64,000 bases of DNA from a virus. The position numbers and the translations under genes are program-made. The stretch spans positions 32,324 through 96,323 of the IMG/VR virus record IMGVR_UViG_3300039190_000120; one strand, written 5' to 3'. The notes under the pieces were generated by a model. It did not search any database. It saw only the letters and a list, made by a program, of their open reading frames with translations, and had not been told where the DNA came from. Below are positions 32,392 to 59,738 of the stretch, in pieces. Position 1 is the stretch's first letter; every line of letters starts with the position of its first letter.

Positions 32392-32595
32392 CTAATCTAA
32401 TTGGAGGTAGCTTCCCCGCCTCGGAGGAATATTGAGCTTTTCCCCGTAAACATTCATATCCATCCCATCCACTTGCAGAGTTACATACACGTGTATATAG
32501 GAATAGGTATCCAGACCTTTGTGTAAATAGATTTTACCGGGTCCTATTAGGTCAGGGATTGCCCGGCCCAGCACGTTGAAAAGGTTACGTATCAC
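32392..32595 (-). CDS. MIRN-motif protein
   Basis: GTG start, MIRNLFN. Confidence 0.55.
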   Translation of the reverse strand: MIRNLFNVLGRAIPDLIGPGKIYLHKGLDTYSYIHVYVTLQVDGMDMNVYGEKLNIPPRRGSYLQLD

Positions 32596-40809: not shown

Positions 40810-41271
40810 TCACGTCTCTTGTGCTTTGTGTAGTGCTCGTCGGAGCTGGGTTTCCGTTGCCCGCACCGGGTCCAGAACCCAAGCGTCATCCTGCCTGTGT
40901 TTGACCAGAACCTCTGTCCAGAATTTCAATAAGGCACGGTAGTGACTCAGAAGGATGCGGTTCGTCTCAAAAGAGGCGTAAATATGGCGCTTGGGCACAT
41001 GCCACTTTTTCTCTCCGTACTCCCGGACGTACTCAATAGACTCCCCCACCTTCCAGTCAATCTCATACCAGAGTCTGTTTCGCTGGGGTCCATCGGAACC
41101 CGACTGAAAGCCCCAAGACTCCGACTTGAAGAAGGTCCACCGAAGTTTGAGGCCTCCATCAGTAAGGTCTATCGAGGAAGGGTCTAAGACCTCCGACGTA
41201 AAGATACGCCCAAAGTCCCTGTACGGTAGGTGAGCTAAGAGGCAGGCTGTGGTTGTACGGTCTAGAACCAT
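40810..41271 (-). CDS. Divergent MIRN-family protein
   Basis: MVLDRT..., P...LRWTF pattern; promoter TTGACA-17-TAACGT at 41290-41318. Confidence 0.6.
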   Translation of the reverse strand: MVLDRTTTACLLAHLPYRDFGRIFTSEVLDPSSIDLTDGGLKLRWTFFKSESWGFQSGSDGPQRNRLWYEIDWKVGESIEYVREYGEKKWHVPKRHIYASFETNRILLSHYRALLKFWTEVLVKHRQDDAWVLDPVRATETQLRRALHKAQET

Positions 41272-41329
41272 AACACACTCTTATCAAATACGTTATGAGA
41301 CTACCATAGCCGTGTCAAAGTGACAATCA

Positions 41330-41893
41330 CTACTCATTCCCGGCCTCTCGATACAACTCCATCAGCCGATGGAGCCTCAGACCCTGCTCTAAAGGGGAAG
41401 TGCCTTCGGCATCGTCCCCGTCTTCATCGTCTAGGGGGTGTGAGAAAGGACTGCCCTCCGGGTCGTAAAAAACAGGCTCAATCCCGTTGGAGACGTGAGG
41501 TATGATCTGCGGCCTAGACCGACCAGTCGGCATGGAGTCCACCACAAATGTTCTGTGCTGTCTCTCCGGCTCCATAAAGGCGGTCCACCTGAACATCACC
41601 TCAGATGTGTAGGAGTGATAAGGAGACTCAACGGGGTCCTCTCGCCGGTTGAGTTCCAGTGTACCTTCCATCACCTCGTCCTTGAGACGCTCCTGCACAA
41701 CTCGCTTGTGATTCGGAGGTATCCGATTGAGGTCCAACTTGTAGTCGATGTAATCTGCCCTCTGATCACTGCGGCTTTGGACAGTGATCCACCTTCTCTG
41801 GAGCTTAACACCATTCTCACGCCCTTTGGTGAGCAAGATGTTGTACCCCTTATGCCGGGCTCCACGTAGGTTGTTGAAGTAGTTACGTATCAT
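41330..41893 (-). CDS. MIRN-motif protein
   Basis: MIRNYFNNL. Confidence 0.7.
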   Translation of the reverse strand: MIRNYFNNLRGARHKGYNILLTKGRENGVKLQRRWITVQSRSDQRADYIDYKLDLNRIPPNHKRVVQERLKDEVMEGTLELNRREDPVESPYHSYTSEVMFRWTAFMEPERQHRTFVVDSMPTGRSRPQIIPHVSNGIEPVFYDPEGSPFSHPLDDEDGDDAEGTSPLEQGLRLHRLMELYREAGNE

Positions 41894-42122
41894 CGAACTC
41901 GAATACTCGGTAGTCGTCTAAGTGCGGATCGTACACGAGGACGGGTACTCGAAGGCGCAGGTCGCCCTGTACGAGCCGGACTCGTCCTTCTCTTTGAGAG
42001 TACCACCATACCTTATCGATCACAAGGGTGATACCGAATGATACGTCTTGGCCCTGCTGCCGAAGCTCAAACTCCAACCGTTCTTTCCGACAGGCTATCT
42101 GATTGAGCCAGTTATAGATCAT
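41883..42122 (-). CDS. MIRN-motif protein
   Basis: MIYNWLNQ. Confidence 0.65.
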   Translation of the reverse strand: MIYNWLNQIACRKERLEFELRQQGQDVSFGITLVIDKVWWYSQREGRVRLVQGDLRLRVPVLVYDPHLDDYRVFEFDDT

Positions 42123-42133
42123 AACCACACGGG

Positions 42134-42430
42134 TTATGAGTCGATTATGAGACGGCCAAGGGCGTGGGGATTGAATACAGCGACTCCGATACGGGTCTGG
42201 ATACGACCTAGAGGAGCAGACCTCCCTGTGTGGGCCTCCAAGGTGAAACCACGGCCCCGAAATAGCCTTGGACCCTTGTGATGTACTATCCCCTTGGAGT
42301 CGACAAACAAGCACATAACGCCCATGCTGTTTGTCCTCGTGATCTCTATCTGGTGGGCGGGGAACTCTTCTAGGTACGTCTCCACGGGCTCCCTTCGATC
42401 CTCCAATATGTCAAACCAGTTGCGTATCAT
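42134..42430 (-). CDS. MIRN-motif protein
   Basis: MIRNWFDIL. Confidence 0.65.
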   Translation of the reverse strand: MIRNWFDILEDRREPVETYLEEFPAHQIEITRTNSMGVMCLFVDSKGIVHHKGPRLFRGRGFTLEAHTGRSAPLGRIQTRIGVAVFNPHALGRLIIDS

Positions 42431-42977
42431 GTGAGTCTCCTAAGGTATCCTCGTAAAGTTGCTCTAGGCTGCCTGCCTCCTCGACGGCATCCTCAATCCT
42501 TTCCCGTATGACCATCACTGATCTTGCCACAAGCCGAATGCCTTCGCTGATACGGGAGCTACCACTCTCAAAGCCAATCTCTTCATGTGCTTTGAGCCCA
42601 TCAGAGAGTGTCATCAGGAAGTAGTCTAGAGGTACCTTATCGCCGCCCAAAAGGACCATCCTCATACAGGCCATGAGAAGCTCAAGGTACTGGTGAGGCT
42701 GTGTTCTGGGGTCCAGTTCAACTAGATCATTCCTCAGTCCCTCATAGATATTAGCATCAAACCCGCATTTCATATCTGCATAGAGGTCGATCTCTTCGAT
42801 CTCCCCATCTCGAACCACCACGGGTCCGTTCCACCCGTGATCACCGCTGTGAAAGTAGCAGCGGTAGGTAGAGCCGTCCTCAATCAGAGCCACCTCAGTA
42901 TCCTCATACTTACGGACGAGACGATATAGGGGCTTTCTGTTCGTGTCAAGTGCGTTGAAGTAATTAGTTATTGTCAT
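42411..42977 (-). CDS. MIRN-motif protein
   Basis: MTITNYFNAL. Confidence 0.65.
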   Translation of the reverse strand: MTITNYFNALDTNRKPLYRLVRKYEDTEVALIEDGSTYRCYFHSGDHGWNGPVVVRDGEIEEIDLYADMKCGFDANIYEGLRNDLVELDPRTQPHQYLELLMACMRMVLLGGDKVPLDYFLMTLSDGLKAHEEIGFESGSSRISEGIRLVARSVMVIRERIEDAVEEAGSLEQLYEDTLGDSHDTQLV

Positions 42978-43533
42978 CGTCATCATCTCCGTCCCAGCTC
43001 CATACCACGTCGCCTGAAATATGAATATCGCCCATAAGTATCGTCGAGGGTCTGTCTGAGATCTGCCTAACGTCACTCAGGTCTGGCTGCAGGGGGACGT
43101 CACCGGAGAGGACACCCAAGTATTGGCAAGTCCTCTCGTCATACGTCACTTCTATTGACGCTCTAGATGGGGTCAGAGACACGTTCTCTACCACCGCTAC
43201 GTCCTGATAAGCTACGTCGTCATAAATAACGGGGTACTGATTGATCCCACGTATGTCCTCCGGTGGTCTAGCGGGATCAAAACCAATGGAGACGTAATCA
43301 TGGGGACCGGGGTCAGGGATGCGAGACTCCAGAGCCATCTGAAAGAGTAGACCCCCATCGGCCCCTCGCACCTGATAGCAGAGGACACGAGGATCTGCGG
43401 CACCCCTTACAGCCAAGATGGAATCCCGCACACGCACCAACTGGAAGTAGGCATCGTCCGTCCGCTCCACAGAGGTCTCAATCTCTTTCCGTATGACGGG
43501 GTTTGATAGCTTATTGAACAGGTTACTGATCAT
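42964..43533 (-). CDS. MIRN-motif protein
   Basis: MISNLFNKL. Confidence 0.65.
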   Translation of the reverse strand: MISNLFNKLSNPVIRKEIETSVERTDDAYFQLVRVRDSILAVRGAADPRVLCYQVRGADGGLLFQMALESRIPDPGPHDYVSIGFDPARPPEDIRGINQYPVIYDDVAYQDVAVVENVSLTPSRASIEVTYDERTCQYLGVLSGDVPLQPDLSDVRQISDRPSTILMGDIHISGDVVWSWDGDDDDDNN

Positions 43534-43867
43534 GGTCATCATCCGATTCCACAGGGCATTGATCTAAAAAGAGCGCCGGTCTGGTAACATAGTTAGGTTG
43601 CAGCTCGAACGTCTCTCTAGGCCTGTTTGGAGACCCTTCAATAGGGAATCTAGGTGTTCCTCCAAATAGACTTCCCAGCACTTCAGGCAGAGGCCTTGCC
43701 TTGACACGCAGCCTCGCTCCCATAACCTCTCGATCTCCACAGTGAAGGTAGTACCGCCACTCCCTCTCACCCTCCACCACGCCGAACTCATGAGCACCGT
43801 GAGCATCCACCTCGTGTTCGATGATCCCCCGCCAACCCGCTACCACATTGAACCAGTTATTGATCAT
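43523..43867 (-). CDS. MIRN-motif protein
   Basis: MINNWFNVV. Confidence 0.65.
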   Translation of the reverse strand: MINNWFNVVAGWRGIIEHEVDAHGAHEFGVVEGEREWRYYLHCGDREVMGARLRVKARPLPEVLGSLFGGTPRFPIEGSPNRPRETFELQPNYVTRPALFLDQCPVESDDDHDQ

Positions 43868-44279
43868 CAGCATCGTCCTGACGGATCAAGGTGTGGCGCT
43901 CTGCGTCCGTCAAGAATGAGGACGGCCCGGAGGACCCATAGCGTCCGGTGTTCTCCATAAAGAAAATAGCCCCTACAGGCTGTTGCATAGGCTCTATACG
44001 CACCAGATTATGCCGTATGAGGCCCCGCTCTGTGAGCGGGACAGGACCCTCGGGGCGAAAGCGTTGACCTCCGATCTCTACGCAGGCTTCATGGAGTAGG
44101 TGATAGGGACCGGAGTCTTCCTGTTCACTGGACAGGGCACGGATATGGAGGCGCTTGTCTTTCCACAGAAGATCAAAGCGTAGGTTAGGTGCCATCTCGA
44201 ACAGCTCAGGGGCCACCCACCCCGGAAGCTCTCCTGCGTCTACCCCCGTCTGTACGAGTGCGAAATAGTTTTTGATCAT
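43857..44279 (-). CDS. MIRN-motif protein, first of a seven-gene run
   Basis: MIKNYFALV; GGAGGAG RBS; promoter TTTACG-17-TATAGT at 44300-44328. Confidence 0.7.
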   Translation of the reverse strand: MIKNYFALVQTGVDAGELPGWVAPELFEMAPNLRFDLLWKDKRLHIRALSSEQEDSGPYHLLHEACVEIGGQRFRPEGPVPLTERGLIRHNLVRIEPMQQPVGAIFFMENTGRYGSSGPSSFLTDAERHTLIRQDDADDQ

Positions 44280-44332
44280 ACGTACTCCTCCTAGCTGGAA
44301 CTATACCAGATCGGAAGAGTATCGTAAACGGT

Positions 44333-44560
44333 CTAGGCCCGCTCGATCTTCTCGAAGGCTCCCATGAAGAAGGGGAGTCCTACCGGCTCACGGGTGTCTG
44401 CATACTCCAAGCCGTAGCAGCCTTCGGAACCACAGACGTCGACCTGAGCAACAACACACTCCACCAGCGGGTACTCTTTGTTTCCTCGCTGCGTGGTACA
44501 GCCGCCTTCCATACGTTTGAGGCGCACATACACCTTATCACCCTTCTTGAGCTTCTCCAT
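44333..44560 (-). CDS. Small SH3/KOW-like hypothetical protein
   Basis: MEKLKKGDKVYV; promoter TTGACC-17-TATTAG at 44600-44628. Confidence 0.55.
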   Translation of the reverse strand: MEKLKKGDKVYVRLKRMEGGCTTQRGNKEYPLVECVVAQVDVCGSEGCYGLEYADTREPVGLPFFMGAFEKIERA

Positions 44561-44607
44561 CCGGTCTCTCCGCGTAAGTAGTGTCCCTATTGTCACTACC
44601 TAATACC

Positions 44608-45084
44608 CTACGAAGCACGGTAGGTCAAATTAAGGTCCCACACAGGATCTTCCCAAGGTGCAAATACTGGTCGAGGTATGTACGTCTCAATCATATCGGG
44701 GATTGGAACCTGTTGGTACTCCTCCTGCTCTCCATACATCTTAAAGGTGTGGTAGAGCAGGTCTTCCGTGAGATGGTACCAATCCCAAGACCGCTCATGC
44801 CGAAGGGAATCCTCGCAGCCGCCACCACGGGGGTTATAGCATTGGGAGGCTATCTCGAACTTCTGTGTTCGCACCTGCCAGATCACCCGATACTTCTCGA
44901 ATATGTTATTGCCGGTGTCGTACTGCCAGACAAAGACGACTTCAATGAGCTGATCTGTACCGGGATTAGGTACGGCCTTGACCGCAGGCCGGGGGATATG
45001 ATCAAGGTCGTGGTACCAGAGAGAGGATGCACGCTCTTTCAAGACACCCATCAAGTAGCCTACGGTACTGTGGTTTCTAATCAT
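44608..45084 (-). CDS. MIRN-motif protein
   Basis: MIRNHS..., P...VFVWQY. Confidence 0.7.
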   Translation of the reverse strand: MIRNHSTVGYLMGVLKERASSLWYHDLDHIPRPAVKAVPNPGTDQLIEVVFVWQYDTGNNIFEKYRVIWQVRTQKFEIASQCYNPRGGGCEDSLRHERSWDWYHLTEDLLYHTFKMYGEQEEYQQVPIPDMIETYIPRPVFAPWEDPVWDLNLTYRAS

Positions 45085-45092
45085 GGGTAGGT

Positions 45093-45551
45093 CTACAGCG
45101 TATTGTGTTGGACAAGTTCCTCTACGGCCCTCTTAGCTTCTTTGAGAGCACACTTCGTCCCATCCCGGTACGCCTTGATGGCGTGGATCTTCCCTTCGGT
45201 GTTGTAGAGGTAGAGAATTCGAGTTTCAAAGTCCTTCTGTGCCTTTGCCTCAGGGTCTTGGTGTGAGGGGTAAAAGGCACGACGGGAAACCACCTTGATT
45301 TCGCCCTTCTCTTTGTAGGCCTCACGGTCGAGCTTCTGAGCACCCTTCACGTCTGCCAGCATATCGACCATGAGTTGGGCCTTGTCCTTCTCTGAGGGCA
45401 CAACCACCTCTTGACCCCCGTGCATGATCAACTGCACACCTTCCGGGACCACAAAGGCCACGGACACGAGAGCTGCGTCGATCAGGGCAGAATTGACTCC
45501 CTCTGCAGCATCGGCCACAAACGAGGTACTTATGTTACTGGTAGTAGTCAT
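45093..45551 (-). CDS. Protein with C-terminal ribosomal L7/L12-CTD-like domain
   Basis: GKIHAIKAYRDGTKCALKEAKRAVE matches the KIxAIKxxRxxTGxGLKEAKxxVE pattern. Confidence 0.65.
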   Translation of the reverse strand: MTTTSNISTSFVADAAEGVNSALIDAALVSVAFVVPEGVQLIMHGGQEVVVPSEKDKAQLMVDMLADVKGAQKLDREAYKEKGEIKVVSRRAFYPSHQDPEAKAQKDFETRILYLYNTEGKIHAIKAYRDGTKCALKEAKRAVEELVQHNTL

Positions 45552-45583
45552 ACGTAGTATCGTACCTTACGGGGGCAAAGGCT

Positions 45584-46003
45584 TCAAGACGATTTCTCAA
45601 CCTCAAGGGTCTCCACCCCAAGTTCGGCATCTTCTCGGAACTTGTCAATCCAACCCTGTGCTGCCTCTTCATCAGTGAAGACTCGGGTGACAAGGGTGTC
45701 GTAGTCAGTCACAACGCAGACCGTCTGCTCAGGCTCGTACTCAGTTTCAACCACCAAGCCCCGCATCAAGGTCCAACCCTCGTCTACAGCGCCATCCTCC
45801 ATGAACGCCTCAGCCGCATCCTCGTTGGAGAAGATACGTACCCCATAGTCGTCAGGCTGGAAGGCCACGTAGAGGCTAAGGTTGCCTCTAATAACGTCCA
45901 CGAGGGATTCCAGTGTCCCCGTGAGCTTCCCAAAATTCTGGACGAAGGAAGGTACCTGATAATCCAAGAGACGCTTGCCCCATACGGTGCGGAAGAAGTC
46001 CAT
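45584..46003 (-). CDS. Hypothetical protein with internal repeat
   Basis: RIFSNEDAAEAF and RVFTDEEAAQGW. Confidence 0.6.
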   Translation of the reverse strand: MDFFRTVWGKRLLDYQVPSFVQNFGKLTGTLESLVDVIRGNLSLYVAFQPDDYGVRIFSNEDAAEAFMEDGAVDEGWTLMRGLVVETEYEPEQTVCVVTDYDTLVTRVFTDEEAAQGWIDKFREDAELGVETLEVEKSS

Positions 46004-46004
46004 G

Positions 46005-46514
46005 CTAGCCTCCTAAGGCTGCTCTAAAAGGGTTGTCGAAGGGTGAACTCGTATCGAAGGTGTTACGCAATGACTCAGAGTAGAACCGCGTATGGAGCTG
46101 GGCCACGTCATCTTCGGTAATAAGCGACGAACGTCGGTACATCACACCACCCATCAGGTCGCCAATATCTTCGAGGGTTAGGTGCTGACCCGTTTCTAGA
46201 GCCACGTATAACCAGTTATGGAGGACACGCTCTTTGATAGGCATACCTGCTGACTTGAACAGGGTGCTGTAGTCATACAGGGAGTGTAGCCCATCCCCAT
46301 ATCCGAAGACGAACCTGTCCATTGAAGGGTCCCAACTGAACCGAAAAAACTGTGTATCTCTACTGGAGAACTCGAAAACCCATATGAGATGCACCGTGAG
46401 GATAGCGGTCACATGCTCCTCATAGACCTCAAAGATGGGCTCCGGGAGTGTGCTTCCGATCCGCCTCTGGGCCTCTCCATACAGGAGGCCTAGTATGTAC
46501 CTATCCTGTATCAT
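46005..46514 (-). CDS. Divergent MIRN-family protein
   Basis: MIQDRYILG..., LPEP...LIWVF. Confidence 0.65.
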   Translation of the reverse strand: MIQDRYILGLLYGEAQRRIGSTLPEPIFEVYEEHVTAILTVHLIWVFEFSSRDTQFFRFSWDPSMDRFVFGYGDGLHSLYDYSTLFKSAGMPIKERVLHNWLYVALETGQHLTLEDIGDLMGGVMYRRSSLITEDDVAQLHTRFYSESLRNTFDTSSPFDNPFRAALGG

Positions 46515-46744
46515 GGGTCGTCTTCGAGGTTCTTCGAGAAGGCTTCGTCAACCAGCTCAGGATAGTCTTTTCTGATTCTGTTCTCGATTTTGTCAGCGAC
46601 TTCCTCGGGAGTAAGCGCATCACCGAACCAGAGCCCGATGGTCCAATTGTGCACCCCGTAAGGTGAGACTACGTGGGTATCCACCCCACGATCCTCCAAA
46701 ACCTTGATAGGTTCTTTTACGTTCTTTTGGATCTGTGTTGGCAT
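46511..46744 (-). CDS. Hypothetical protein
   Basis: AAGGAG RBS, ATGA overlap. Confidence 0.6.
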   Translation of the reverse strand: MPTQIQKNVKEPIKVLEDRGVDTHVVSPYGVHNWTIGLWFGDALTPEEVADKIENRIRKDYPELVDEAFSKNLEDDP

Positions 46745-46756
46745 TCCAATCTCCTT

Positions 46757-46861
46757 TCACACGGGCTGGTCGAAGCCTACACCCACCATCCAGTAAATCA
46801 ACACGCTGAATGCTGCGTAGGTCAGAACCATCAGGATACGCTCTTTCGTCTGTTCGCTCAT
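46757..46861 (-). CDS. Small membrane peptide (34 aa)
   Basis: MSEQTKERILMVLTYAAFSVLIYWMVGVGFDQPV; GAGG RBS; promoter TTGACG-17-TACAAA at 46908-46936. Confidence 0.6.
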   Translation of the reverse strand: MSEQTKERILMVLTYAAFSVLIYWMVGVGFDQPV

Positions 46862-46965
46862 TGGGGACCTCTCCGTGGTCGATGGTAATAACTCCCTGTC
46901 ACACCCCTTTGTACCCTAAGGTAGGAGGAGCGTCAAAAAAAGATTCTCGGAGAGGTCCCGTAAGG

Positions 46966-47649
46966 TCATCGGAGCTTGGATTCGTCGAAGTCCGGGAACT
47001 GCGGTGTGATTTCGTAGCACTTGCCGTCCCGGATAAAGGCCCGCCAGTAGTCCCCGGTGTCTTCCCCTTGCCCGGTCACGGTGAACAAGCCCTCGATGGT
47101 TTCGGAGAGCTTTGTGAAGAAGTCCTTCCACTGGTAGAACTTCACGTCACCGGACGAGAAGGTACGGTCCTTATGGTGGTAAAACGTGTACCCTTGCCCG
47201 GCTGTGAACATCTTATCCTCGTTTCTGTCGAGGGAGATCTCCAAGGTTTCTTCATCGACGAGAGCGATGCTGATCTTCTCATCATCGAACTGGACTGCAT
47301 CAGGAAACCTCGTGTCGGTGAACTCTTCATTGAGCCCTTCGACGAGGTACTTTGACAGTTGCCTTTTCCACCCGCCCACGTACTTCTCGATGCTGAGGTC
47401 TTCTCGGCTGTCAAAACCCTCCCGCGCAAACAGCACGGTGCCGTCCTCAATCTCGTGCTGGTGTACCACTTCCGAGGTGCTGTCACTCTTATGAAATTGG
47501 ATGACAATATTCGAAGAATAGCTGCTTCCGATCTCGAATGACTCGCCCCAGACAACCTCGTAATCTCCGACGTCAATCCGAATCGGTTGCCGAAGGTAGT
47601 GCTCCGGAAGGTCGTCAATAAATACTTTCAGGTCTTCTAGTGTGTGCAT
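46966..47649 (-). CDS. Phage hypothetical protein
   Basis: 227 aa, GGAGG RBS, LFTVTGQGEDTGDYWR motif. Confidence 0.65.
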   Translation of the reverse strand: MHTLEDLKVFIDDLPEHYLRQPIRIDVGDYEVVWGESFEIGSSYSSNIVIQFHKSDSTSEVVHQHEIEDGTVLFAREGFDSREDLSIEKYVGGWKRQLSKYLVEGLNEEFTDTRFPDAVQFDDEKISIALVDEETLEISLDRNEDKMFTAGQGYTFYHHKDRTFSSGDVKFYQWKDFFTKLSETIEGLFTVTGQGEDTGDYWRAFIRDGKCYEITPQFPDFDESKLR

Positions 47650-47736
47650 GTTGCCTCCCTTATCTAATTGGTGACCTGCCTCTTCAGTACGTGGTGGTCA
47701 GTCCACGTAGACGCCCTCACTATGAGAGCGTTTCGG

Positions 47737-47982
47737 CTAGTTGTCGTCGACACACAGCACTTCGCCGTGCACCTCGTCGTCCTCGTCAGGCCCCTTGCAC
47801 TTCACGACAACACAGGGCTCATCAGGAATGGGGTTCTGGCAGCACGTCTCACCCCTGTAATCGTAGCAGAGACTGCCACCATCGGTGGTCCACGTGTCGT
47901 CATTGTTGATGTCTGACGTCGGCTCGACGCCGCCGCCACAACCAACCGCGAAAAGCATCGCAATCAGAATAATCCGTTTCAT
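47737..47982 (-). CDS. Small Cys-rich lipoprotein
   Basis: MKRIILIAMLFAVG-C lipobox; GGAGG RBS. Confidence 0.7.
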   Translation of the reverse strand: MKRIILIAMLFAVGCGGGVEPTSDINNDDTWTTDGGSLCYDYRGETCCQNPIPDEPCVVVKCKGPDEDDEVHGEVLCVDDN

Positions 47983-48008
47983 TGTTGCCTCCATGTATCA
48001 GTTGTTAG

Positions 48009-48070
48009 CCTGCCTCATCAGTAAGTGAGTGGCTAGTCTCACTCATACGCCCGGTTGCCCGGGGGCGAAG
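48009..48070 (-). ncRNA. Degenerate type II hammerhead-ribozyme-like element
   Basis: Minus strand: gcc CCCGG-gcaa-CCGGG cg UA UGAGUGAG-loop-CUCACUUA CUGAUGA ggc; GAAA core strand absent. Confidence 0.45.
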
Positions 48071-48134
48071 TTCTCTTCATCGGTGATACGGGCCTTGCTA
48101 CGGCCTTGGCGAGAGAATGTCTCGTCTTCTTCAC

Positions 48135-48383
48135 TCATTGGGTGTGAACCTCTCGCTGAAGGCCGTAATAAATGCTTGCACGTTGCTTAGCGTTGTCACC
48201 CCAGAAGTGGTTGTTGTCCTTAGTTGTGGACCAACCCTCTTCTGGATGCGTGTAGACAATCGCCACGTGATGCTCGTTTTCGTGATTGCCACCACACTCA
48301 CCGTGAGGCCACATCTGTAGGACCAACTCACGGTCGTCATCTATTTTGGTGCTTTCCAGCACCTTCCACTTTCGGTCTGCCAT
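48135..48383 (-). CDS. Hypothetical protein
   Basis: 82-aa ORF in early operon. Confidence 0.6.
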   Translation of the reverse strand: MADRKWKVLESTKIDDDRELVLQMWPHGECGGNHENEHHVAIVYTHPEEGWSTTKDNNHFWGDNAKQRASIYYGLQREVHTQ

Positions 48384-48392
48384 CTGGCCCTC

Positions 48393-48611
48393 TTAGCGCT
48401 TGGCGTACTTGACGATTTCGTTGTCTTTGCCGCCCACGAAGATCTCCCCAAAGATGCACTTGGAGTCACCCTCACGGAGGATCGCACCACCGTCAGCTTC
48501 ACCCTTGCGGGCAAGACCTTTGACCTTGCTGATAAGCCCGCTCTTCGTGCGAGCGTTCACAAGGTAGCCTTCCTCTTGATGGAAGACGTGGGCATAAGGT
48601 ACGTAGCGCAT
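48393..48611 (-). CDS. Hypothetical protein
   Basis: GGAGG RBS; promoter TTGACG-17-TACTCA at 48670-48698. Confidence 0.6.
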   Translation of the reverse strand: MRYVPYAHVFHQEEGYLVNARTKSGLISKVKGLARKGEADGGAILREGDSKCIFGEIFVGGKDNEIVKYAKR

Positions 48612-48705
48612 ATGAACCTCCGTAGTGGGAGTTAGTGTTTGAGGAGGCGACTCCTCCCCGGCTCACTAATGAGTACCATAGCTATCCTACGGCGTCAAAA
48701 GAATC

Positions 48706-49347: not shown

Positions 49348-49423
49348 TCAGTAGGGCTATGAGGGTGCCGACTTCTTCTTGATGGAGGAGGTGCATGTAG
49401 GAGCCTAGTCTATTCCGAATCAT
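49268..49423 (-). CDS. Short or truncated MIRN-motif ORF
   Basis: MIRNRLGSY. Confidence 0.45.
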   Translation of the reverse strand: MIRNRLGSYMHLLHQEEVGTLIALLNEADGTQDRDSEVPDPGVQEEPGLAE

Positions 49424-49847
49424 GAGGCATCCTGTGAGAAAGGAGTGGTGGTACTTCCTGTAGAGCTTCCGCAAACTGATGCAAGCCCGGAATCTCTTTT
49501 CGCAAGTAGCGAGCCTCGCCCACACTGTATGAATTCTTGACGGTCACTAAGAGCTTCTCAAGGTCTGTATACTTGTGCGTGCCCCTTCGATCCCACCCAC
49601 CTAGAATCTCCGACCAAAAGTAGTGCGAGAACCAACAAAAGTAAAAGCCCTCCTGATTAAAGAGCAGGTAGTAAAAATGACGCATTGGGGGCCGGGGATG
49701 GTCAGGTATGTCGATCAAATAGCCCACCCCTATTCTCTCTGAAGCCGTCTTATGGAAGGCGGGACAACCCAAGACCTCTACGGCTCTGTCCAGCGCGTAG
49801 TGTGTCCCTAAGATCTCCTGAGTCCTGCTGAGATGATTATGTATCAT
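49410..49847 (-). CDS. MIRN-motif protein
   Basis: MIHNHL...VLGCP. Confidence 0.65.
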   Translation of the reverse strand: MIHNHLSRTQEILGTHYALDRAVEVLGCPAFHKTASERIGVGYLIDIPDHPRPPMRHFYYLLFNQEGFYFCWFSHYFWSEILGGWDRRGTHKYTDLEKLLVTVKNSYSVGEARYLRKEIPGLHQFAEALQEVPPLLSHRMPHDSE

Positions 49848-50070
49848 GGCAGAAGAACTTGGAACGAGCCCCTAAGACATACACAGAGCGACGTGAGGAC
49901 TCCCCCTCGACTCGAATGACAAGGCGTGGTTGGACCTCGGGACCACGGCGATTCTGGGCCACGTTTCTATTTGCCATCTTCTTGAAGGTCCACGTCTCCT
50001 GCTCGGAGACCATACGCTTGATTCTAAGCTGGCATATATCTGCTTGGTTGAACCAGTTTTTGAGTGTCAT
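49837..50070 (-). CDS. MIRN-motif protein
   Basis: MTLKNWFNQ. Confidence 0.55.
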   Translation of the reverse strand: MTLKNWFNQADICQLRIKRMVSEQETWTFKKMANRNVAQNRRGPEVQPRLVIRVEGESSRRSVYVLGARSKFFCHDT

Positions 50071-50498
50071 GACGGGCTCCCCGATACCTGAGACTTGTAC
50101 CAACCCTCTCGCTCAAACAGTTCGGGTAAGTCTTGCATATGATGCGCCAGCCTATCGAGGCGGTAGCCACTCAGGGGCATGAACCTCCCGTCTTCCGAAG
50201 CCTTGATCCACTCGGTAGGGAGGTGGAAGGTCTTCTCTTCCCCACTCTGGTAGGAGATCAGAGTATCCTCTGTCTCGGCCCAGCGATCGCAGGTGGCCTT
50301 GGGATGGCTGTAGGTAGAACCTGTCATACTTCGATTGAGCCAGACTAATGTGAGACGGGCAAAACCCAACGTCGGATATATCTCTAGCTCCGGCTGGGTA
50401 GGAAAGCCCATGATGGATACTAAATTGAAGACGCCGGGGAAGTAGCTATCCAGCTCAAGGAACTGACGAGCTTCCCTGATGTAATTACGTATCGGCAT
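50067..50498 (-). CDS. MIRN-motif protein
   Basis: MPIRNYI...MGFP...LTLVWL. Confidence 0.65.
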   Translation of the reverse strand: MPIRNYIREARQFLELDSYFPGVFNLVSIMGFPTQPELEIYPTLGFARLTLVWLNRSMTGSTYSHPKATCDRWAETEDTLISYQSGEEKTFHLPTEWIKASEDGRFMPLSGYRLDRLAHHMQDLPELFEREGWYKSQVSGSPS

Positions 50499-50715
50499 GT
50501 GTCTCTGAAAGCTCAGCAAGTCCTAGCGTCCAACCTACGGCGTACGAGTCTTGATTACGTTTGAGATAGGGTCGCATTACAGGGTAGATAGTCACGACCC
50601 GGAAGCGCCGACCATCGTCCTTCTCGATAATGTCCCCTATCTCGTGTGGTTTGGGAACACGGGGCCGGTTGTACAGCTCTCTTTGCAACTCTTCTTTGGT
50701 CTGGGCTCTAGCCAT
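50485..50715 (-). CDS. Hypothetical protein
   Basis: 76-aa ORF downstream of TTGACA-18-TATCAG. Confidence 0.6.
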   Translation of the reverse strand: MARAQTKEELQRELYNRPRVPKPHEIGDIIEKDDGRRFRVVTIYPVMRPYLKRNQDSYAVGWTLGLAELSETHADT

Positions 50716-50791
50716 CTCGTCTTCTCTCTGGTAGTCATAGAGCTAGCATCTATCTGATACCACAGTGCTATGCCTGTTGTCAAAGAGCCCA

Positions 50792-51276
50792 ATGATACGT
50801 AACTACCTCCCCTACAGTCACATCTTTGATGAAATTAGGTACCGGTGTCCCATCGGGTATGAGGTACTCAAGAGCTGCCCAATGCCCTCTCGTATCGAGA
50901 TGCGCGGGGCGAACTGGACGGTCCTCAATTGGGTATTCGACCGATCCGATACGATACGGAAGAGTTCGTAGTGAATATCTGCTTCATGCAAACAGACAGT
51001 GGTGAGATAAAGCCCCATTGGGAGGGCGAACCAGAGCCTGAAGACTGGCATCGTTCCAAAGATTATGAAGACCACGAGGCACTCATAAGAATGGTACGCC
51101 ACTACGCACGCCAAGACTCGGTGACAAAGCGGATACTACCAATGCCCGACGAAGTGGCTCGGGAGTTCTGGGAAGGACAGCCTCCCTTTAGCCTTCTTGT
51201 CCTGTCGACCTACGAGGTACTTCGTGCAGACGTCGGAGACAGCGGACCCTCAGTACACCAACTACGTCGATACTAG
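50792..51276 (+). pseudogene. Plus-strand MIRN-motif gene frameshifted by a 5-bp duplication
   Basis: MIRNYLPY...LNWVFDRSD; removing one CGATA copy near 50950 gives one 159-aa frame. Confidence 0.7.
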
Positions 51277-51410
51277 GTTTGAGTAGTGTGGACCCTGTGC
51301 AGACAATGGAAGGGGCAGACCGGAGCATATCAACAGGACTGCAATACTTACGGGGACTTAGTTTGTTTCCCGAAAAAGGGTTGGCAATGAAGGACCTAGC
51401 CTCGGTGTGA

Positions 51411-52069
51411 TCAGGAAAGTAGGTTGCCTCGAAGGTCCAACAGATGCCCTGATCTTGAGGCTCCGGGGAGGAGCCAGACCCAGCAAACAACCAGAGCACG
51501 GCTCGCGCTCTCATACTCAAGGTAGGAAGGTACGCCGTGATCAAGGGTTGGGGCAAAAGCCGGGAACCTCGAAGCGACCTCGTAGAGTAGGTTCCAGTAC
51601 GTGAAGTAGTTCTCAATCAAAACGGCGAAGACCACGTGGTCATAGAAGTCATAATCCGTCCAAAACTCACTGAGGACGAACCTGCCATTAGCGGAGAGGG
51701 GGACGGGTTGGAGTCCTTGTTCCTCAATACGATCACACAGGATGAAGATACCATCTGTGACCTGAGCTACCTCGTTGCGTACGAAGTTCCACCCGTTCTC
51801 GCTGATCCTGATCTTCTCGTAAGTGTATACCGTATGTGCACCATAGCCCTCTTGGAAGAGGATCTCCAGTGTCCATCTCCTCTCGTCTCTAGCGCCGATC
51901 TGATCGGGGTCACAAAAGCTCCAGTACGCAGTGAAGAACTGGTTCTCTAGGAGGCTTAAATCAGATGGCGGTACACCTCCCAACTCGTCCACTACGTATT
52001 TGACCCCGTGGACTTATGGCGGTACATATTGACAAGTGCAAATCCCTCTAGGTACCTTTCCTTAATCAT
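51411..52069 (-). pseudogene. Frameshifted MIRN-family gene with a second internal MIRN-like domain
   Basis: MIKERYLEG (ATG 52069) one base out of frame with DELGGVPP..AYWSF; internal LIENYF...GVP...VCWVW. Confidence 0.6.
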
Positions 52070-52190
52070 GCGAACTTCCTCTCTAACCTTGAGAGACGCA
52101 GGTCAATAAGACGCTGGCGTTGACCGCGGCCTGATTCATCCATCTTCAGCTTGTAACACCCATCCCGGATGCTATGCTATACAAACGTCT

Positions 52191-52457
52191 CTAGGTCGCG
52201 GACCTCGATGTGCTCTTCCTCATTGTGGTTGAGGACCCACTGAACTTCGTGTTGGTCATAGCGTAGCGGGTATAAGTAAGCACGATCCAGTAGTCCGGGT
52301 ACTCCCTGTCTTCGTAGATCCAGTAGATCGTAAACTCGGCCTCCTGAGAGATCCCACCAATGTCCGTAGGCACACCTAGAGTGCGGATCAATCCCGGAAT
52401 CACAGGGTCCAAAAGAGCCAGTGTCCTGTAGACCGGAAGATAGTTACGTATGCTCAT
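52191..52457 (-). pseudogene. MIRN-motif gene with 5-bp duplication frameshift
   Basis: MSIRNYL...LGVP...IYWIY; CGCTA x2 near 52260 shifts away from a protein-like YDQHEVQWVL frame. Confidence 0.6.
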
Positions 52458-52639
52458 ATCTTGGGATCCGGCCGGAGAAAAAATGGTCGTAGGTGCATCT
52501 CCACTCTATCCTCTGTGGCCGGGCCGGGGTCTAGGCTTCTGGAAGACATAAGAGGACCAACCCAGAAAGTCACGAAGGTAGGAGGTCCACCGGCACTTAG
52601 ATACAGGAGGTATTGTCTGTTGAACCAGTTGCGTATCAT
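52454..52639 (-). CDS. MIRN-motif ORF
   Basis: MIRNWFNRQ. Confidence 0.55.
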   Translation of the reverse strand: MIRNWFNRQYLLYLSAGGPPTFVTFWVGPLMSSRSLDPGPATEDRVEMHLRPFFLRPDPKI

Positions 52640-53120
52640 CCCAAAGCCTCCAAGATCTTAGCATGGGCGTCCTTATTGGGCTCCTGCTTAATACCTGAGG
52701 GACCACATAGGCGTCGGTGTGCAAGAACAGACTTCTTGAAGTCGGAGCCGTCCTCTATGAGCCGCCGCCTTTCTTCGACACTGCGATAGCCACGGGATAA
52801 GGCTCTCTGGAAATAGTGATAACCCTCTACCTTCCTGTCATGGGCCGGATTGAGGATCAAGGTGTAGACGTGGTGGACGTCCGTTCTCGCTTCCTCACCC
52901 TCGGTGAGGTCTACGAGCCGGACAAAACGATGCTAGCATCCTTTTCGGTGTACCGCCACAAGATAGCAATTGCATTGTCTATATCAGAGATGGCTGAGAA
53001 ATACCCGTAGCCCAGACACCAAGGGGACCCCAACGTCGAGATGTACTCCTCCCATAACAAGGGGTGGCGGTCGAGCAGAGGACCTACGACATAATAGAGG
53101 GGTGAGGTGTCGAGTATCAT
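52636..53120 (-). pseudogene. Divergent MIRN-family gene, frameshifted
   Basis: MILDTS...LGSP...ILWRY; continuation in another frame to 52636. Confidence 0.5.
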
Positions 53121-53386
53121 GTGAGGAACCTCTTTATGGACCCCAGCGTGTTGAGGTTGTAGGAGGGAATCATCTTACCGTACTCAGTGAGTGGGGGCGC
53201 TGCATCCAAAAAGGCATCGAGACCTACACACGTATTATTCTCGGTACTAGTACGTAGACCTTTGTTGTCGTACTCACGGTTCTCTATCCCCAAGATGATG
53301 GTCCCGTCAAGGTAGAGTCGGCAATTGTGGTCGAAAGGGACTCGAAGATGTAGAGAACCATGACGTGGTGAGTACCACCGTCTGCC

Positions 53387-53518
53387 TCAGGGTCCTGATT
53401 GACAGAGAGGATACACACGTAGTTGACCGTACGTCTGGAAGATAGGACCACCCATAGAGGCCCATCTCGACAGGAGGATACAACAAACCTCGTGATGGAG
53501 GAAGAAATTGCGTATCAT
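53387..53518 (-). pseudogene. Truncated MIRN-motif gene
   Basis: MIRNFFLHHEVCCILLSRWASMGGPIFQTYG, similar to the 53946 gene; not in ORF track. Confidence 0.55.
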
Positions 53519-53546
53519 AACAGGAACTCACGCTCGATTCGACCCA

Positions 53547-53946
53547 TCATTGACAAGTCGTAGGACGGCTCGATCCTCTTGAACTTCTCGGGCATCGGGT
53601 CGCACGCTCAGGCCGAGGGTGCACCTCTCCCGCACCAAACTCTCGCTTCCGACTGTGCTTAACACGTCCCCAACGACCATCATAGACACGAAGCTCTCGT
53701 ATGTGCCTCACACGTCCAGAGGGCCACAAAAAGGTCTTGTACTCCCAGAGGCTATCCTCCGACTCAAATTGGTGGGCCACGAATACCGAATCCTCGACGA
53801 TACTAATGATGCGAGGCTAGGCTAGGCGAGGCGAGGCGAGGTCGGCCCATCACCTTGAAGATCGTGCCCGTGCCCGTGCCCAGCGAAGGCCACTTCTCTA
53901 TCAGGCCCTGACAGATGGAGTAGTGATAGAGGTAATTGCGTATCAT
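53547..53946 (-). pseudogene. MIRN-motif gene disrupted by pentamer expansion
   Basis: MIRNYLYHY...MGRPR; six pentamers at 53811-53840; removing five restores GRPRIISIVEDSVFVAHQF. Confidence 0.7.
53811..53841. repeat. Mixed pentanucleotide repeat (GGCTA/GGCGA)
   Basis: gcgag gctag gctag gcgag gcgag gcgag g. Confidence 0.9.
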
Positions 53947-53950
53947 GCTC

Positions 53951-54215
53951 TCAGATACCTTCTATTACGGCGTAAGCAGTATCCAGTGCGTCACGTGGCT
54001 CTACATCTGTTCCCTCCACATCAGCATAGAGAGCTGCTGTCTCCCTGTGTAGCACAAAGGACATAAAGAAGGGAGGCCCACTGTACGTACCGGTGTGGTA
54101 AGACCACGTGATAATGAAGTAGTCCCCCTCTTGTGGGCAGACCTCCACGGCCTCACGGCCCCACGGCCTCGAAGAACTCCGTAAGCAGGGGTCCCAATTG
54201 CTCAGTGTCTACCAT
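53951..54215 (-). pseudogene. Gene disrupted by 8-bp repeat
   Basis: CACGGCC(T/C) x3 at 54146-54169 separates MVDTEQLG..FFEAV from EVCPQEGDYFIITWSY. Confidence 0.5.
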
Positions 54216-54474
54216 TCAGCACTCTCTATCATTCCGTACAGGGCGTGCACAGCATCCCACGACTTCTTATAGGGATACCTACGCCTTTCTGCTACAGATC
54301 GCCAAGCCTTCATCGAACCATCTGACCTGTCAATCTCGAACACAAGGTACTTCATATGCGTACCACCTCTTCGAGAGACTGCTGGCGTACAGAGAAACAC
54401 GGGTCCTCTTCTGTCTCCCTCTCCCATTCGATATGCTCGAAGCGAAGGCACAGGGTAGCTTAGCTCGTCATTGA

Positions 54475-54500
54475 GGTGAGGTGCGGTGCGGTGCGGTGCC
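54475..54500. repeat. Pentanucleotide repeat GGTGA(GGTGC)4 inside MPIRNL gene start (ATG 54525)
   Basis: ggtga ggtgc ggtgc ggtgc ggtgc c. Confidence 0.9.
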
Positions 54501-54526
54501 ATACTGTAAGGTTACGTATCGGCATC

Positions 54527-54763
54527 TTAGAGCGCCTTGCATTCGGAGAGATTGATACCGTGCTTCACAGCTTGTCCCTCTACGTCTGTACCTGCATAGA
54601 GAAAGGCCGCATCATCGAAGACCCAATTGGACCCTCCCGTACCGGACTGCCACACATGAAGGTAGCCCTCTGAGGTACTCCCCTTGTTGCGTGTCACGAA
54701 TACGAGGGGCTCTGAAACACGCAGATGACGCATGTGGTCTTCCTTCTCCTCTATGTCCTGCAT
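54527..54763 (-). CDS. Hypothetical protein
   Basis: 78-aa ORF; true start possibly MRHLRV. Confidence 0.5.
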   Translation of the reverse strand: MQDIEEKEDHMRHLRVSEPLVFVTRNKGSTSEGYLHVWQSGTGGSNWVFDDAAFLYAGTDVEGQAVKHGINLSECKAL

Positions 54764-54813
54764 GGCTAGGGCTAGGTCTAGGTCTAGGTCTAGGTCTAGG
54801 TCTAGGTCTAGGT
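54764..54813. repeat. Hexanucleotide repeat (CTAGGT)7
   Basis: Seven perfect units at 54772-54813, preceded by GGCTAG G. Confidence 0.95.
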
Positions 54814-55060
54814 AAGAGATAAGACCTGCTGCAGATAAAGACGATAGCTTATATTAGCTATGACCCCCGGTATGATTCGGTCCCCTTGTGTCCTTCGTGC
54901 CATTCGTTATGCCTCTTGTTGGTTAGTTCCTGTGTAACCACTCCTATATACCACAAAGGACGTAATAAGCGGGGTATTTATGTGGGGTCCTACGGGTATT
55001 TTAAGGGGGTTTTATTTGACCCCTTGCAGGAAGGAGTTGTGAGAGGGGGTCGCGGTCGAG

Positions 55061-55218
55061 GGAAGGGTTGAGCTAGAGGTCAAGAACCCATATCAGAAGG
55101 GCGTGAGAGGCCGATTATCGTCCTGTGACGGAGATCAAAGGAAGGGTTGAGCTAGAGGTCAAGAACCCATATCAGAAGGGCGTGAGAGGCCGATTATCGT
55201 CCTGTGACGGAGATCAAA
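55061..55218. repeat. Perfect 79-bp tandem duplication
   Basis: 55061-55139 equals 55140-55218. Confidence 0.95.
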
Positions 55219-55340
55219 GGATTATTGATAAGGCGTCATATGTACCGGGCATTCGGATCTGACGAAACAAAAATCCAGAAAAATAATTTCAAAAAAATAA
55301 AATATTGCTTGACAACAGATTCAAAATGTGGAGGACGGTA

Positions 55341-55571
55341 TTAGTGATCGAGATCAAGGCCGGGAATCATGTGCAGGAGATCCTCAGTGACTTCGGCATC
55401 GTGGGTAAGCAGGAGAGGCTGATCATAGGTCCTAGTGATCTCCCCCTTACTGAGGATGATCACCTCGAACTCGTCTGTCTTACTCCGGTCCGTCTGAATC
55501 CAGACCTTGGAGTCGAGGTAGTGATCAGGGATCTTGTCGAGTTGCTCTTTAAGGTCACGCCAAGTGAACAT
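55341..55571 (-). CDS. Hypothetical protein
   Basis: MFTWRDLKEQLDKIPDHYLD resembles the N-terminus of 46966-47649 (MHTLEDLKVFIDDLPEHYL). Confidence 0.6.
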   Translation of the reverse strand: MFTWRDLKEQLDKIPDHYLDSKVWIQTDRSKTDEFEVIILSKGEITRTYDQPLLLTHDAEVTEDLLHMIPGLDLDH

Positions 55572-56043
55572 AGGTATTCTCCATTTGTCAGGTCCACCAG
55601 CAGCCCATGACGGAAACTGCTTTCTGGAGCTGGGTGTGTGGGGTTAACGCATTAGGTGGTGGATTAGTATTTCCGGCCCGGCTCTCATAGAGAGAGAAGT
55701 AGTCTTGCCACGATCCCCGTGTGTACCAGAGATACAGATCGAAGGTCGTGCGTTGAGCTTCCGGGTTATTGGTATCTTCGGCTTCGCACCACTCGACGTA
55801 CTCTTTGAATTTGAGTGGGCCTCCATATGTTCCTCGTCCACTCTGTGTTAACGAGGCACGTGAACACAGAGTGGAAAGCGACGTGATCACAATCGTAGAG
55901 GCGGCCATCCTCTTCAAGAGCCGGGATCGTCAGTTGGTTGCCTTCTATCATATCTAGCGTGGGCCGAAGAAGAAGTCGAAGTGACGGTGAGATTGGTAAA
56001 GGTTCTGCCAAGCCAAGTGGCAGGGTACAGGACGTATTGCTCA

Positions 56044-56340
56044 TTACGCAAATGAAGCAAGCCAAGGTTGGGGGTACATATCTCGATACGTGTGGTGGTC
56101 CGGGGTTTGTTGAGTGAACGTGGTGTTGAACGAGAAGGGATTGTCTTCGGGCTTCTCTAACTGGAGGGTGAAGAGCCAGAGATAGCCAGTATGTGGGTCC
56201 TCGAAGGTCCAGTGGAGTTTGAGCTGATGGTCATCCGGGTACAGGGACGTAAACGAGAAGGGATGCCTGAGCTGATCCCACCATTTCGTAGTGGGGAAGT
56301 AGGAGAAGAAGGTACCTAGCTGGAAGCGTTCCTGAATCAT
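56044..56340 (-). CDS. Divergent MIRN-family protein
   Basis: MIQERFQLG...LHWTF. Confidence 0.6.
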   Translation of the reverse strand: MIQERFQLGTFFSYFPTTKWWDQLRHPFSFTSLYPDDHQLKLHWTFEDPHTGYLWLFTLQLEKPEDNPFSFNTTFTQQTPDHHTYRDMYPQPWLASFA

Positions 56341-56371
56341 GCGAAGGTCCTCATGCGAAGGTCCTCATGCG
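56337..56371. repeat. 14-bp tandem repeat x2.5
   Basis: TCATGCGAAGGTCC. Confidence 0.85.
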
Positions 56372-56527
56372 AGCTTGGTGTCATCCCTCTGTGGTGTGCA
56401 GGTCTGGGGGTTGAAAGCATTGTTGAACCTGAGGAGCCACTGTGGGTAAGCAAGCCACGGCTGCTTTAGATTATCTGAGCTGCGGCTGTAAGCAAAGTCA
56501 GGGGCTTCCTCGTAAGGATCATCTGCC

Positions 56528-56743
56528 TTAGGGGACCATGAAGGTCCAGACCGGCCAGAAGGAGGGAGCTGAATCAGTCACCTGAATGAAGGTCCAGATG
56601 AACTGGTAGACGTGGCAGGTATAGAGACGCCGGTATGTCCAGTTCGTCATATCGAAGGGGACGGCTGGTACAGCTTTCCTGATCAAGGGGTGTAACTGGT
56701 AATTGCACAGAGCGTACCCCGTGTGATGTAGGTCACGAATCAT
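56528..56743 (-). CDS. MIRN-family protein (probably truncated by frameshift)
   Basis: MIRDLHHTG...FIWTF. Confidence 0.55.
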   Translation of the reverse strand: MIRDLHHTGYALCNYQLHPLIRKAVPAVPFDMTNWTYRRLYTCHVYQFIWTFIQVTDSAPSFWPVWTFMVP

Positions 56744-57092
56744 GCTTCTTCCCTCTGATGTGATTCTGTAAGGCGCGTGCCCACCTCATGGAGCCTACCT
56801 CATGGAAAGCGCTGTAGGGAGGGTCAGCCGAATAGAAGCCCATCTCGAAGTCACCCCAAGACTCCGGGCTCTTGAGCAGCCGGAAGGAGAAACACATCTC
56901 GGGATAGTTGACCCCGTTGTAGAAGTGGGTACCCCCTGATAAGGTGAAGTTCCACTGGAGGACAACCATTCCGTCCTCTGTTACCCTCTTGTCATCGGGT
57001 GGGGCCGTAATTTGTTCGAGGACCTTGCGTACGTACCCCGTCTGAGCGTAGGAGGGGAGCGTAGAGTATATCCAGCGATTACTGATTGGCAT
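56733..57092 (-). CDS. MIRN-family protein
   Basis: MPISNRW...APP...LQWNF. Confidence 0.6.
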   Translation of the reverse strand: MPISNRWIYSTLPSYAQTGYVRKVLEQITAPPDDKRVTEDGMVVLQWNFTLSGGTHFYNGVNYPEMCFSFRLLKSPESWGDFEMGFYSADPPYSAFHEVGSMRWARALQNHIRGKKHDS

Positions 57093-57426
57093 TGTAATCC
57101 CCCGGTCTGATCCACTGCTCTTCTTCGTTCGTGAGACGCCACCAATGGAGCCAGTTCCTACTGGAGATACACTTGACGGTATCGTAATTCTCACCCACCC
57201 GGCCCTCCAGATACAGAGGGCGCTCGTTATGCTTGTACTTACGGAGGGCGAAATGAGAGACTTCATCTCTATTTGGATTCTTGAATAGCCAGACGAGATC
57301 AACGCACTCCGACGCCTGCTGTACGTAGGTAGGGGGCCTCAGTAGCTTCGAGAGTATAGCCTAGCCTAGCCTCACCGCACGTGAAGGCTATGAGGTCCTC
57401 AAGTGTATGATGTAGTTACGTATCAT
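57079..57426 (-). pseudogene. MIRN-motif gene disrupted near a pentamer tract
   Basis: MIRNYIIH then early stop; GTGC GGTGA (GGCTA)3 at 57356-57379; downstream frame RPP...LVWLF. Confidence 0.65.
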
Positions 57427-59609: not shown

Positions 59610-59677
59610 GGTCAGTCTCCTAAGTAGTGATCGTAGTGAGTATCGTATGTGGGGAGTATCTCTCCCTCTTGCACTAA

Positions 59678-59706: not shown

Positions 59707-59738
59707 AACTTTTCTCGAAAAAACCTCAGATAAGTTGC

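Follow-up and report, generated by a model that had tools for sequence, protein, structure and literature searches.

Analysis of a 64,000-nt stretch of viral DNA (hereafter, the window; positions 32,324 to 96,323, i.e., the right two thirds, of the 96,323-bp IMG/VR virus contig IMGVR_UViG_3300039190_000120) revealed a set of small genes, most of them between window positions 40,810 and 57,426, whose products share the N-terminal consensus M(x)-I-x-N-aromatic-F/L-N/D-x-L. This motif marks a real family of small genes of unknown function, found only in this phage lineage. Our best explanation, held with middling confidence, is a birth-and-death family that is specific to this lineage, was amplified in tandem and has retained its extreme N-terminus as a functional handle common to its members. 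In this view, the small accessory proteins belong to one superfamily, which would have grown by tandem duplication and would now be undergoing birth and death, with intact arrays, gene fusions and truncated, frameshifted or inverted remnants. As predicted by modelling, the motif would start an amphipathic helix, which together with a beta-meander forms a module of ~50–75 residues; outside this module, each protein has presumably diverged, in one of two subtypes (subtype 1) beyond recognition. We infer that the two N-terminal helical turns may be held by selection for one common job, most likely contact with a partner or packing surface common to all members, with specificity supplied by the variable remainder. 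That the N-terminus is the best-conserved part, lies at a fixed distance from the chain end and survives in the closest relative found argues that it has a job of its own, and a shared contact is our most economical guess at what that job is.

Occurrence of the motif and its restriction to one phage lineage

The initial annotation of this region had listed about 28 motif-bearing genes, and all 22 of its regular starts, its six looser variants and an internal LIENYF copy were recovered in the sequence position for position. Its gene count has to be lowered: while the starts are real, seven belong to remnants or very short open reading frames (ORFs), namely 57426 (12 aa), 54525 (21 aa), 52069 (25 aa, with a stop and a frameshift), 53518 (43 aa), 53946 (47 aa), 49423 (51 aa) and 50792 on the plus strand (59 aa), leaving ~21 credible members (genes are named here by the window position of their start). 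The DNA form of M-I-x-N followed by an aromatic or Leu codon, ATGATHNNNAAYYDB, is found in 14 copies vs. 0.59 +/- 0.88 in shuffled sequences, with ATG preceding all of them and 13 lying on the minus strand, and ATHNNNAAYTDSYT likewise has 14 copies vs. 1.21 expected. In a genome-wide scan for ORFs of at least 20 aa headed by M(x)[IL]xN, 20 ORFs form a tight cluster at window 41.9–57.1 kb and two more, at 29223 and 32595, flank a ribonucleotide-reductase-like (nrd) gene; matches in the remaining 60 kb are scattered and mostly internal. The start of 32595 is GTG, and for eight of the chosen starts the ORF offers an earlier start codon, in three cases an in-frame ATG 2–3 codons upstream. A bias toward ATGA overlaps of stop and start codons, which the initial annotation had named as a possible trivial source of the motif, does not account for its frequency, because only three of the 47 ATGA-starting ORFs (among 111 minus-strand ORFs outside the region) have Ile at position 2.

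The contig is a fragment of a very large phage (CheckV completeness ~20%), an uncultivated, myovirus-like giant. The closest relative found, a syntenic 115,647-bp IMG/VR contig with 65–77% nucleotide identity (hereafter G1, as opposed to G0 for the present phage), stops at the equivalent of window ~34 kb, short of the motif-gene region, and three further G1-like relatives recovered by motif and protein scans also end short of this accessory region. A second sample of the same phage (L034) is 99.6% identical. Family proteins occur only in 1–4 contigs of the same phage; searches with four members returned only the queries themselves (a shared-word search of 5.8 billion proteins and a full HMMER search of 1.84 billion representatives), and scans for patterns and proteins across viral, metagenome and genome collections gave, beyond L034 and the G1-like relatives, matches at chance level only. 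Two borderline matches to repeat proteins (a TPR protein and a SpaA-domain protein) were set aside, their scores being inflated by summing over repeats. When about 20 members were compared with Pfam and PHROGs, the only match was the C-terminal domain of 29223 (phrog_13182), which in G1 is a separate small gene, and no recognisable anti-host or effector domain was found in any body.

Next to nrd, one family member can be followed across the G0/G1 divergence. The syntenic counterpart of 32595 upstream of nrd (G1:1848) has kept N4, F6, N7 and L9 of the motif, while the bodies barely align. Just downstream of nrd, G1 carries a 102-aa gene starting MIVNHS (L004 4375-4683 (+)) and the present phage an unrelated 131-aa gene (29698-30093, minus strand), which is a gene replacement at a fixed position.

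Two subtypes with different relationships among their bodies

The credible members fall into two subtypes, as had been proposed, both on the minus strand. Subtype 1 (MIxN[YW]F[ND]xL) comprises eleven genes:

41330..44279, minus strand: seven consecutive subtype-1 genes of 79–189 aa, with starts at 44279, 43867, 43533, 42977, 42430, 42122 and 41893
28633..29223, minus strand: outlying subtype-1 gene, 196 aa, MIRNYFD, with an N-terminal part of 111 aa joined to the C-terminal phrog_13182 domain
32392..32595, minus strand: outlying subtype-1 gene, 67 aa, GTG start, immediately preceding the ribonucleotide reductase-like gene
49837..50070, minus strand: subtype-1 gene, 77 aa, MTLKNWFN, with one extra codon after ATG
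52454..52639, minus strand: short subtype-1 gene, 61 aa, MIRNWFN, first 17 nt identical to 42430

Subtype 2, whose members share a pattern of a helix, a Pro and two W/F-bearing strands, comprises ten:

40810..41271, minus strand: subtype-2 gene, 153 aa, MVLDR, the loosest motif
44608..45084, minus strand: subtype-2 gene, 158 aa, MIRNHS
46005..46514, minus strand: subtype-2 gene, 169 aa, MIQDRY, structure modelled
49410..49847, minus strand: subtype-2-like gene, 145 aa, MIHNHL, body similarity not significant
50067..50498, minus strand: subtype-2 gene, 143 aa, MPIRNYI
52191..52457, minus strand: subtype-2 gene, 88 aa, MSIRNYL
52911..53120, minus strand: subtype-2 gene, 69 aa, MILDT
56044..57092, minus strand: three subtype-2 members with starts at 57092 (119 aa), 56743 (71 aa) and 56340 (98 aa)

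The seven subtype-1 genes in a row, already noticed in the initial annotation, all begin with M(x)I-x-N-[YWL]-[FL] and have positive in-frame codon-usage scores. As for the suggestion that motif-bearing genes have diverse bodies, it holds for the eleven subtype-1 genes, whose bodies indeed cannot be aligned, but not for the ten subtype-2 genes, which are ordinary diverged paralogs. With the first ten residues removed, phmmer detected no similar pair among members. In a leave-one-out hidden Markov model comparison, the truncated query scored above 95% of its own shuffles (p<0.05) for 6 of 10 subtype-2 genes but only 3 of 11 subtype-1 genes. Mean pairwise Smith-Waterman scores over residues 11–75, compared with shuffles, gave z 3.9 within subtype 2 and z 1.7 between the two subtypes; a few subtype-1 pairs (e.g., 42977/43867) are similar over 30–58 residues. 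Judged by these sequence comparisons, subtype 2 is a true paralog family beyond the motif. Motif variants grade between the two subtypes, and motif flavour partly tracks body type.

Predicted structure and the possibility of a portable tag

AlphaFold was run with paralog alignments for two members, 43867 (subtype 1) and 46514 (subtype 2). The 43867 model has a helix at 5–23 followed by strands at 27–32, 35–42 and 45–49, and the 46514 model a helix at 2–19 followed by four strands at 27–74; the mean predicted local distance difference test (pLDDT) values are 52 and 51, reaching ~70 in the N-terminal parts, with C-terminal parts not resolved. Taken together, the models suggest a common N-terminal module in both subtypes, in which a long helix starting from the motif would be followed by a beta-meander. 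Residues 2, 5, 6 and 9 share one helical face, and the helical hydrophobic moment over residues 2–12 is 0.50 in subtype 1 vs. 0.30 in controls. Fold searches with the subtype-2 model gave only generic alpha-plus-beta matches (best Z 6.5, none above background), the ESM Atlas gave no lead (its own model being poor), and Chou-Fasman profiles were uninformative.

The initial annotation had interpreted the motif as a docking tag carrying a library of variable anti-host effectors. In a portable-tag version of this idea, which we consider possible but rather unlikely, the N-terminal peptide would have been spread by recombination onto unrelated bodies and would be read by one receptor. Held just as tentatively, its detailed form has M/x-I-x-N-aromatic-F at the free chain end routing a fast-turnover library of small effectors, the imagined reader being a prohead scaffold (as for the T4 capsid-targeting sequence, CTS), a compartment made by the phage, an adaptor or protease, or a hub in the host. 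The portable tag fits the unalignable subtype-1 bodies, the conservation of the extreme N-terminus at a fixed distance from the chain end, the identical 15–17-nt starts found on unrelated bodies with their retained ATA and CGY codons (detailed below), the joining of the N-terminal part of 29223 to a domain that stands alone in G1, and the presence, downstream of nrd, of a motif-bearing gene in G1 but an unrelated one in G0; T4 internal proteins provide a documented precedent (PMC3012670). It fits less well with subtype 2 being a plain paralog family and with the partial dependence of motif flavour on body type. Nor was a conserved cleavage position found after the motif: alignments A2 and A3 have no conserved column past ~residue 9, and no conserved Glu or other candidate site. 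The bodies carry no recognisable effector domain, and neither a reader candidate nor a head gene was found on the ~20%-complete fragment. As to a detachable tag, the models, weak as they are, speak against it, placing the motif not in a separate leader but at the head of a helix of 15–20 residues within a folded module of helix and beta-sheet. A membrane-targeting helix was also considered unlikely, the net charge of the first 18 residues ranging from -2 to +4 (own count) and not being consistently basic.

Conservation at the peptide vs. nucleotide level

The conserved unit is a peptide linked to the start codon, as the initial annotation had maintained, variation being found at third codon positions and throughout codon 3. 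In an alignment of 65 nt around 21 copies, conservation starts exactly at the ATG and spans 21 nt, with none upstream of it. Variation within these 21 nt is codon-periodic (Ile as ATA/ATT/ATC, Asn as AAC/AAT, Phe as TTC/TTT/CTC, with codon 3 free), and the motif shifts by whole codons only, six copies having one extra codon after ATG. The second residue in all six is small (T, T, P, S, P, P). In E. coli, a small second residue permits Met removal; if the same rule applied in the host of this phage, Ile would stay second in the mature chain of these extra-codon copies.

Synonymous codon variation, on which the earlier argument for the peptide had relied, is real but constrained. Of 27 motif copies, 14 encode Ile by ATA, a codon used for 10% of Ile genome-wide and for 19% where other genes have Ile within their first ten codons. 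The Arg codon is CGY (CGT/CGC) in 13 of 15, whereas the Asn, Tyr and Phe codons of the motif match genome usage. The core nonamer ATACGYAAY has 14 genomic copies; 11 of these are immediately preceded by an ATG, at a distance of 0 or 3 nt, and the remaining three are attributable to chance. In addition, both alternative frames of the motif contain a stop (ATGA; xxT-AAy), which explains the overlaps within the subtype-1 array: at five of its six junctions, the upstream gene terminates (TAA or TGA) inside the motif of its successor, giving overlaps of 11, 14 or 20 nt.

These features bear on a second alternative, in which the unit under selection lies in mRNA or DNA and the peptide is a by-product, e.g., a 5' coding element for translation initiation or coupling, a repressor-bound site, or a short recombination homology mediating duplication, deletion and exchange of cassettes. 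We regard it as improbable. The ATA and CGY preferences and the out-of-frame stops that terminate upstream genes are what such an element would predict, as are the persistence of bodyless orphan copies (57426 and 54525), the inversion of one copy and the direct motif repeats flanking each array gene. Against this, the variation is codon-periodic and mostly synonymous, with several codons simply following genome usage, and displacements of the motif keep to whole codons; the excess of the core nonamer is limited to sites behind ATG, and the counterpart in G1 keeps the residues N, F, N and L, not the nucleotides. Conservation independent of codon position and frame, as expected of an operator or recombination site, was not observed, the sole excess at the nucleotide level being the ATA and CGY preferences, and no recombinase was seen among the ORFs scanned. 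A free-standing DNA motif was rejected on the distribution of the nonamer and the absence of upstream conservation, and a stand-in for the Shine-Dalgarno site on the similar frequency of Shine-Dalgarno sites in motif genes and others (54% vs. 47%, no difference). An mRNA-level or recombination role may contribute, but would leave the codon-periodic pattern unexplained. Stop-codon recoding, considered for the segment at 50.5–57.4 kb with its scarcity of ORFs, was discarded as well and does not restore longer genes there: long ORFs end in TGA (21), TAA (20) and TAG (13), and any read-through lengthens ORFs equally everywhere.

Returning to the favored explanation, a birth-and-death family with a retained N-terminal handle, several observations weigh against it. 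The subtype-1 bodies have no aggregate similarity (z -0.07 in the above Smith-Waterman comparison), and a profile comparison of the two subtype alignments pairs only the first nine columns. The ATA/CGY bias, along with the identical 15–17-nt starts, hints at copying of 5' ends or at nucleotide selection beyond descent. The structural models are weak overall, with pLDDT over the motif itself of only 55–57, and the underlying alignments were anchored on the motif, so that the common layout may be partly imposed. Finally, the partner of the motif is only putative.

Organization and state of the locus

The motif genes are arranged in tandem on the same strand and accompanied by remnants, as expected of a paralogous family by descent. 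Genes at 41.3–46.5 kb are intact and tightly coupled, and they lie behind copies of a repeated promoter-like element. The 50.5–57.4 kb segment holds only short ORFs; simple repeats are numerous there, codon scores are weaker and the GC skew is reversed. It also contains a broken subtype-2 copy, orphan motif copies and one inverted copy. Remnants and their neighbours include:

51411..52069, minus strand: broken subtype-2 copy (stop and frameshift), in which a 25-aa MIKERY ORF ends at TAG and the family pattern (GxP, then h-x-W-x-F) resumes in another frame
53387..53946, minus strand: two short related ORFs of 43 and 47 aa, MIRNFF and MIRNYL, bodies partly through simple-sequence repeats
57388..57426, minus strand: orphan motif copy in a 12-aa ORF that immediately follows the NUDIX gene, first 15 nt identical to 41893
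57427-57975, minus strand: NUDIX hydrolase gene, stop abutting the orphan motif copy
50792..50971, plus strand: sole plus-strand motif copy, 59-aa ORF, forming a 16-nt inverted repeat with the 50498 copy
44603..44628, minus strand: promoter-like element TTGAC-N13-TAGGGTAT, immediately preceding the subtype-1 array (variant at 46912-46939)

Within the broken copy, another motif copy seems to have been fused in, as TTG-IENYF occurs internally at 51620. That the set is mostly non-functional debris, with ORF starts as relics of a decaying repeat region, would agree with the condition of 50.5–57.4 kb but is very improbable, given the intact, coupled genes with positive codon scores at 41.3–46.5 kb, the recurrence of the same proteins in 3–4 independent assemblies, the retention of the motif across the G0/G1 divergence, and the near identity of the second population, which differs (all within simple repeats) by one hexamer unit, one octamer unit and two single-nucleotide polymorphisms.

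Comparison with known systems and implications

T-even internal proteins (IPI-III, encoded by the variable IP locus) are small and fast-evolving, with dissimilar bodies and a short conserved N-terminal peptide (PMC3012670). The present genes resemble this system in being clustered and in carrying a short common N-terminal peptide on dissimilar bodies, a combination seen in the 11 subtype-1 but not in the 10 subtype-2 genes; they differ in lacking a conserved protease cleavage position and in that half of the set are ordinary paralogs. The CTS analogy would therefore describe subtype 1, and even there it appears to fail in the one defining feature that could be checked, the cleavage position. 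Prohead-protease families PF03420 and PF04586 were not found on the ~20%-complete contig, which carries tail and baseplate, not head, genes. To our knowledge, the T4 CTS sequence has no likeness to the motif described here.

A parallel in organization may be found in the "hyperplastic" regions of large phages, which hold lineage-specific multigene families, including T4-type cassettes flanked by early-promoter stem-loops. Shared with these regions are small ORFans that follow one another in tandem on the same strand behind promoter-like elements present in several copies, turnover between relatives, remnants and fusions, whereas the repeated boundary here is formed by the first 21 coding nt and their peptide rather than by an intergenic promoter or hairpin. 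Poxvirus ankyrin/PRANC F-box-like proteins combine a constant docking motif with variable target-binding parts. They offer a functional analogy only (a conserved short terminal element on many divergent paralogs), being not homologous, and the element here is N-terminal, spans ~7–9 residues and has a putative partner. Lastly, the translational repressor RegA of T4 has binding sites overlapping AUG. Sequence at this codon and shortly behind it is likewise common to many genes here; in the present case, conservation is codon-periodic and confined to the region downstream of AUG, and residues, not bases, persist in G1.

Large uncultivated phages encode many small ORFans that offer no handle for functional study, and a motif on about 20 of them defines a set probably acting via one contact, so that identification of the partner would give all motif genes a mode of action at once. 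Should the motif prove to be a transferable tag, it would represent a second, independent case of the T4 internal-protein principle and a possible cargo-loading tool. If the motif only forms the conserved core of a family undergoing divergence, the locus would still provide a clear example of birth and death, with intact arrays, fusions and decaying copies side by side.

Genomic context and additional observations

Nearly all genes of the contig are on its minus strand. Among them are genes for baseplate J, a tape-measure-like 1086-aa protein, topoisomerase IB, RNA ligase, thymidylate synthase, an intein-bearing protein and the ribonucleotide-reductase-like (nrd) protein of 758 aa, the latter named from many phage matches rather than from a family scan. 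The intein, with a LAGLIDADG endonuclease domain, resides in an 878-aa protein (11739-14375, minus strand); part of its gene is 96–98% identical to G1 while the flanks are ~65–70% identical, which suggests a recent intein transfer. The proteins starting at genome position 5102 and at window position 14375 (both minus strand) resemble each other in an N-terminal leader (L-K-x-x-L ... P-x-L ... P-I-R-x-x-L-D) that is unlike the MIxN motif.

The promoter-like element of the minus strand consists of TTGAC(R), 13 nt and (Y)TAGGGTAT, running on to AGGTTAGTG, and has nine exact copies vs. 0 expected (window 17150, 27794, 44628, 60918, 61549, 61969, 62467, 62882 and 63189), with variants at 46912-46939 and 59664-59718; it is densest at 59.7–63.2 kb, ahead of small genes. 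A generic scan for sigma-70 promoters and terminators gave nothing above shuffles. Simple-sequence repeats with 5-, 6- and 8-nt units occupy window 53811–54813, where the hexamer at 53863 and the octamer at 54154 vary in copy number relative to L034, and a perfect 79-bp tandem duplication along with a 17-bp unit repeated four times is found at window 55061–55221 and 59780–59847. Halfway through the accessory region, at 47670-47738 on the minus strand, a type II hammerhead ribozyme (RF02276; its 43.9 bits exceed the gathering score) is flanked by a small lipoprotein-like gene and a 227-aa gene.

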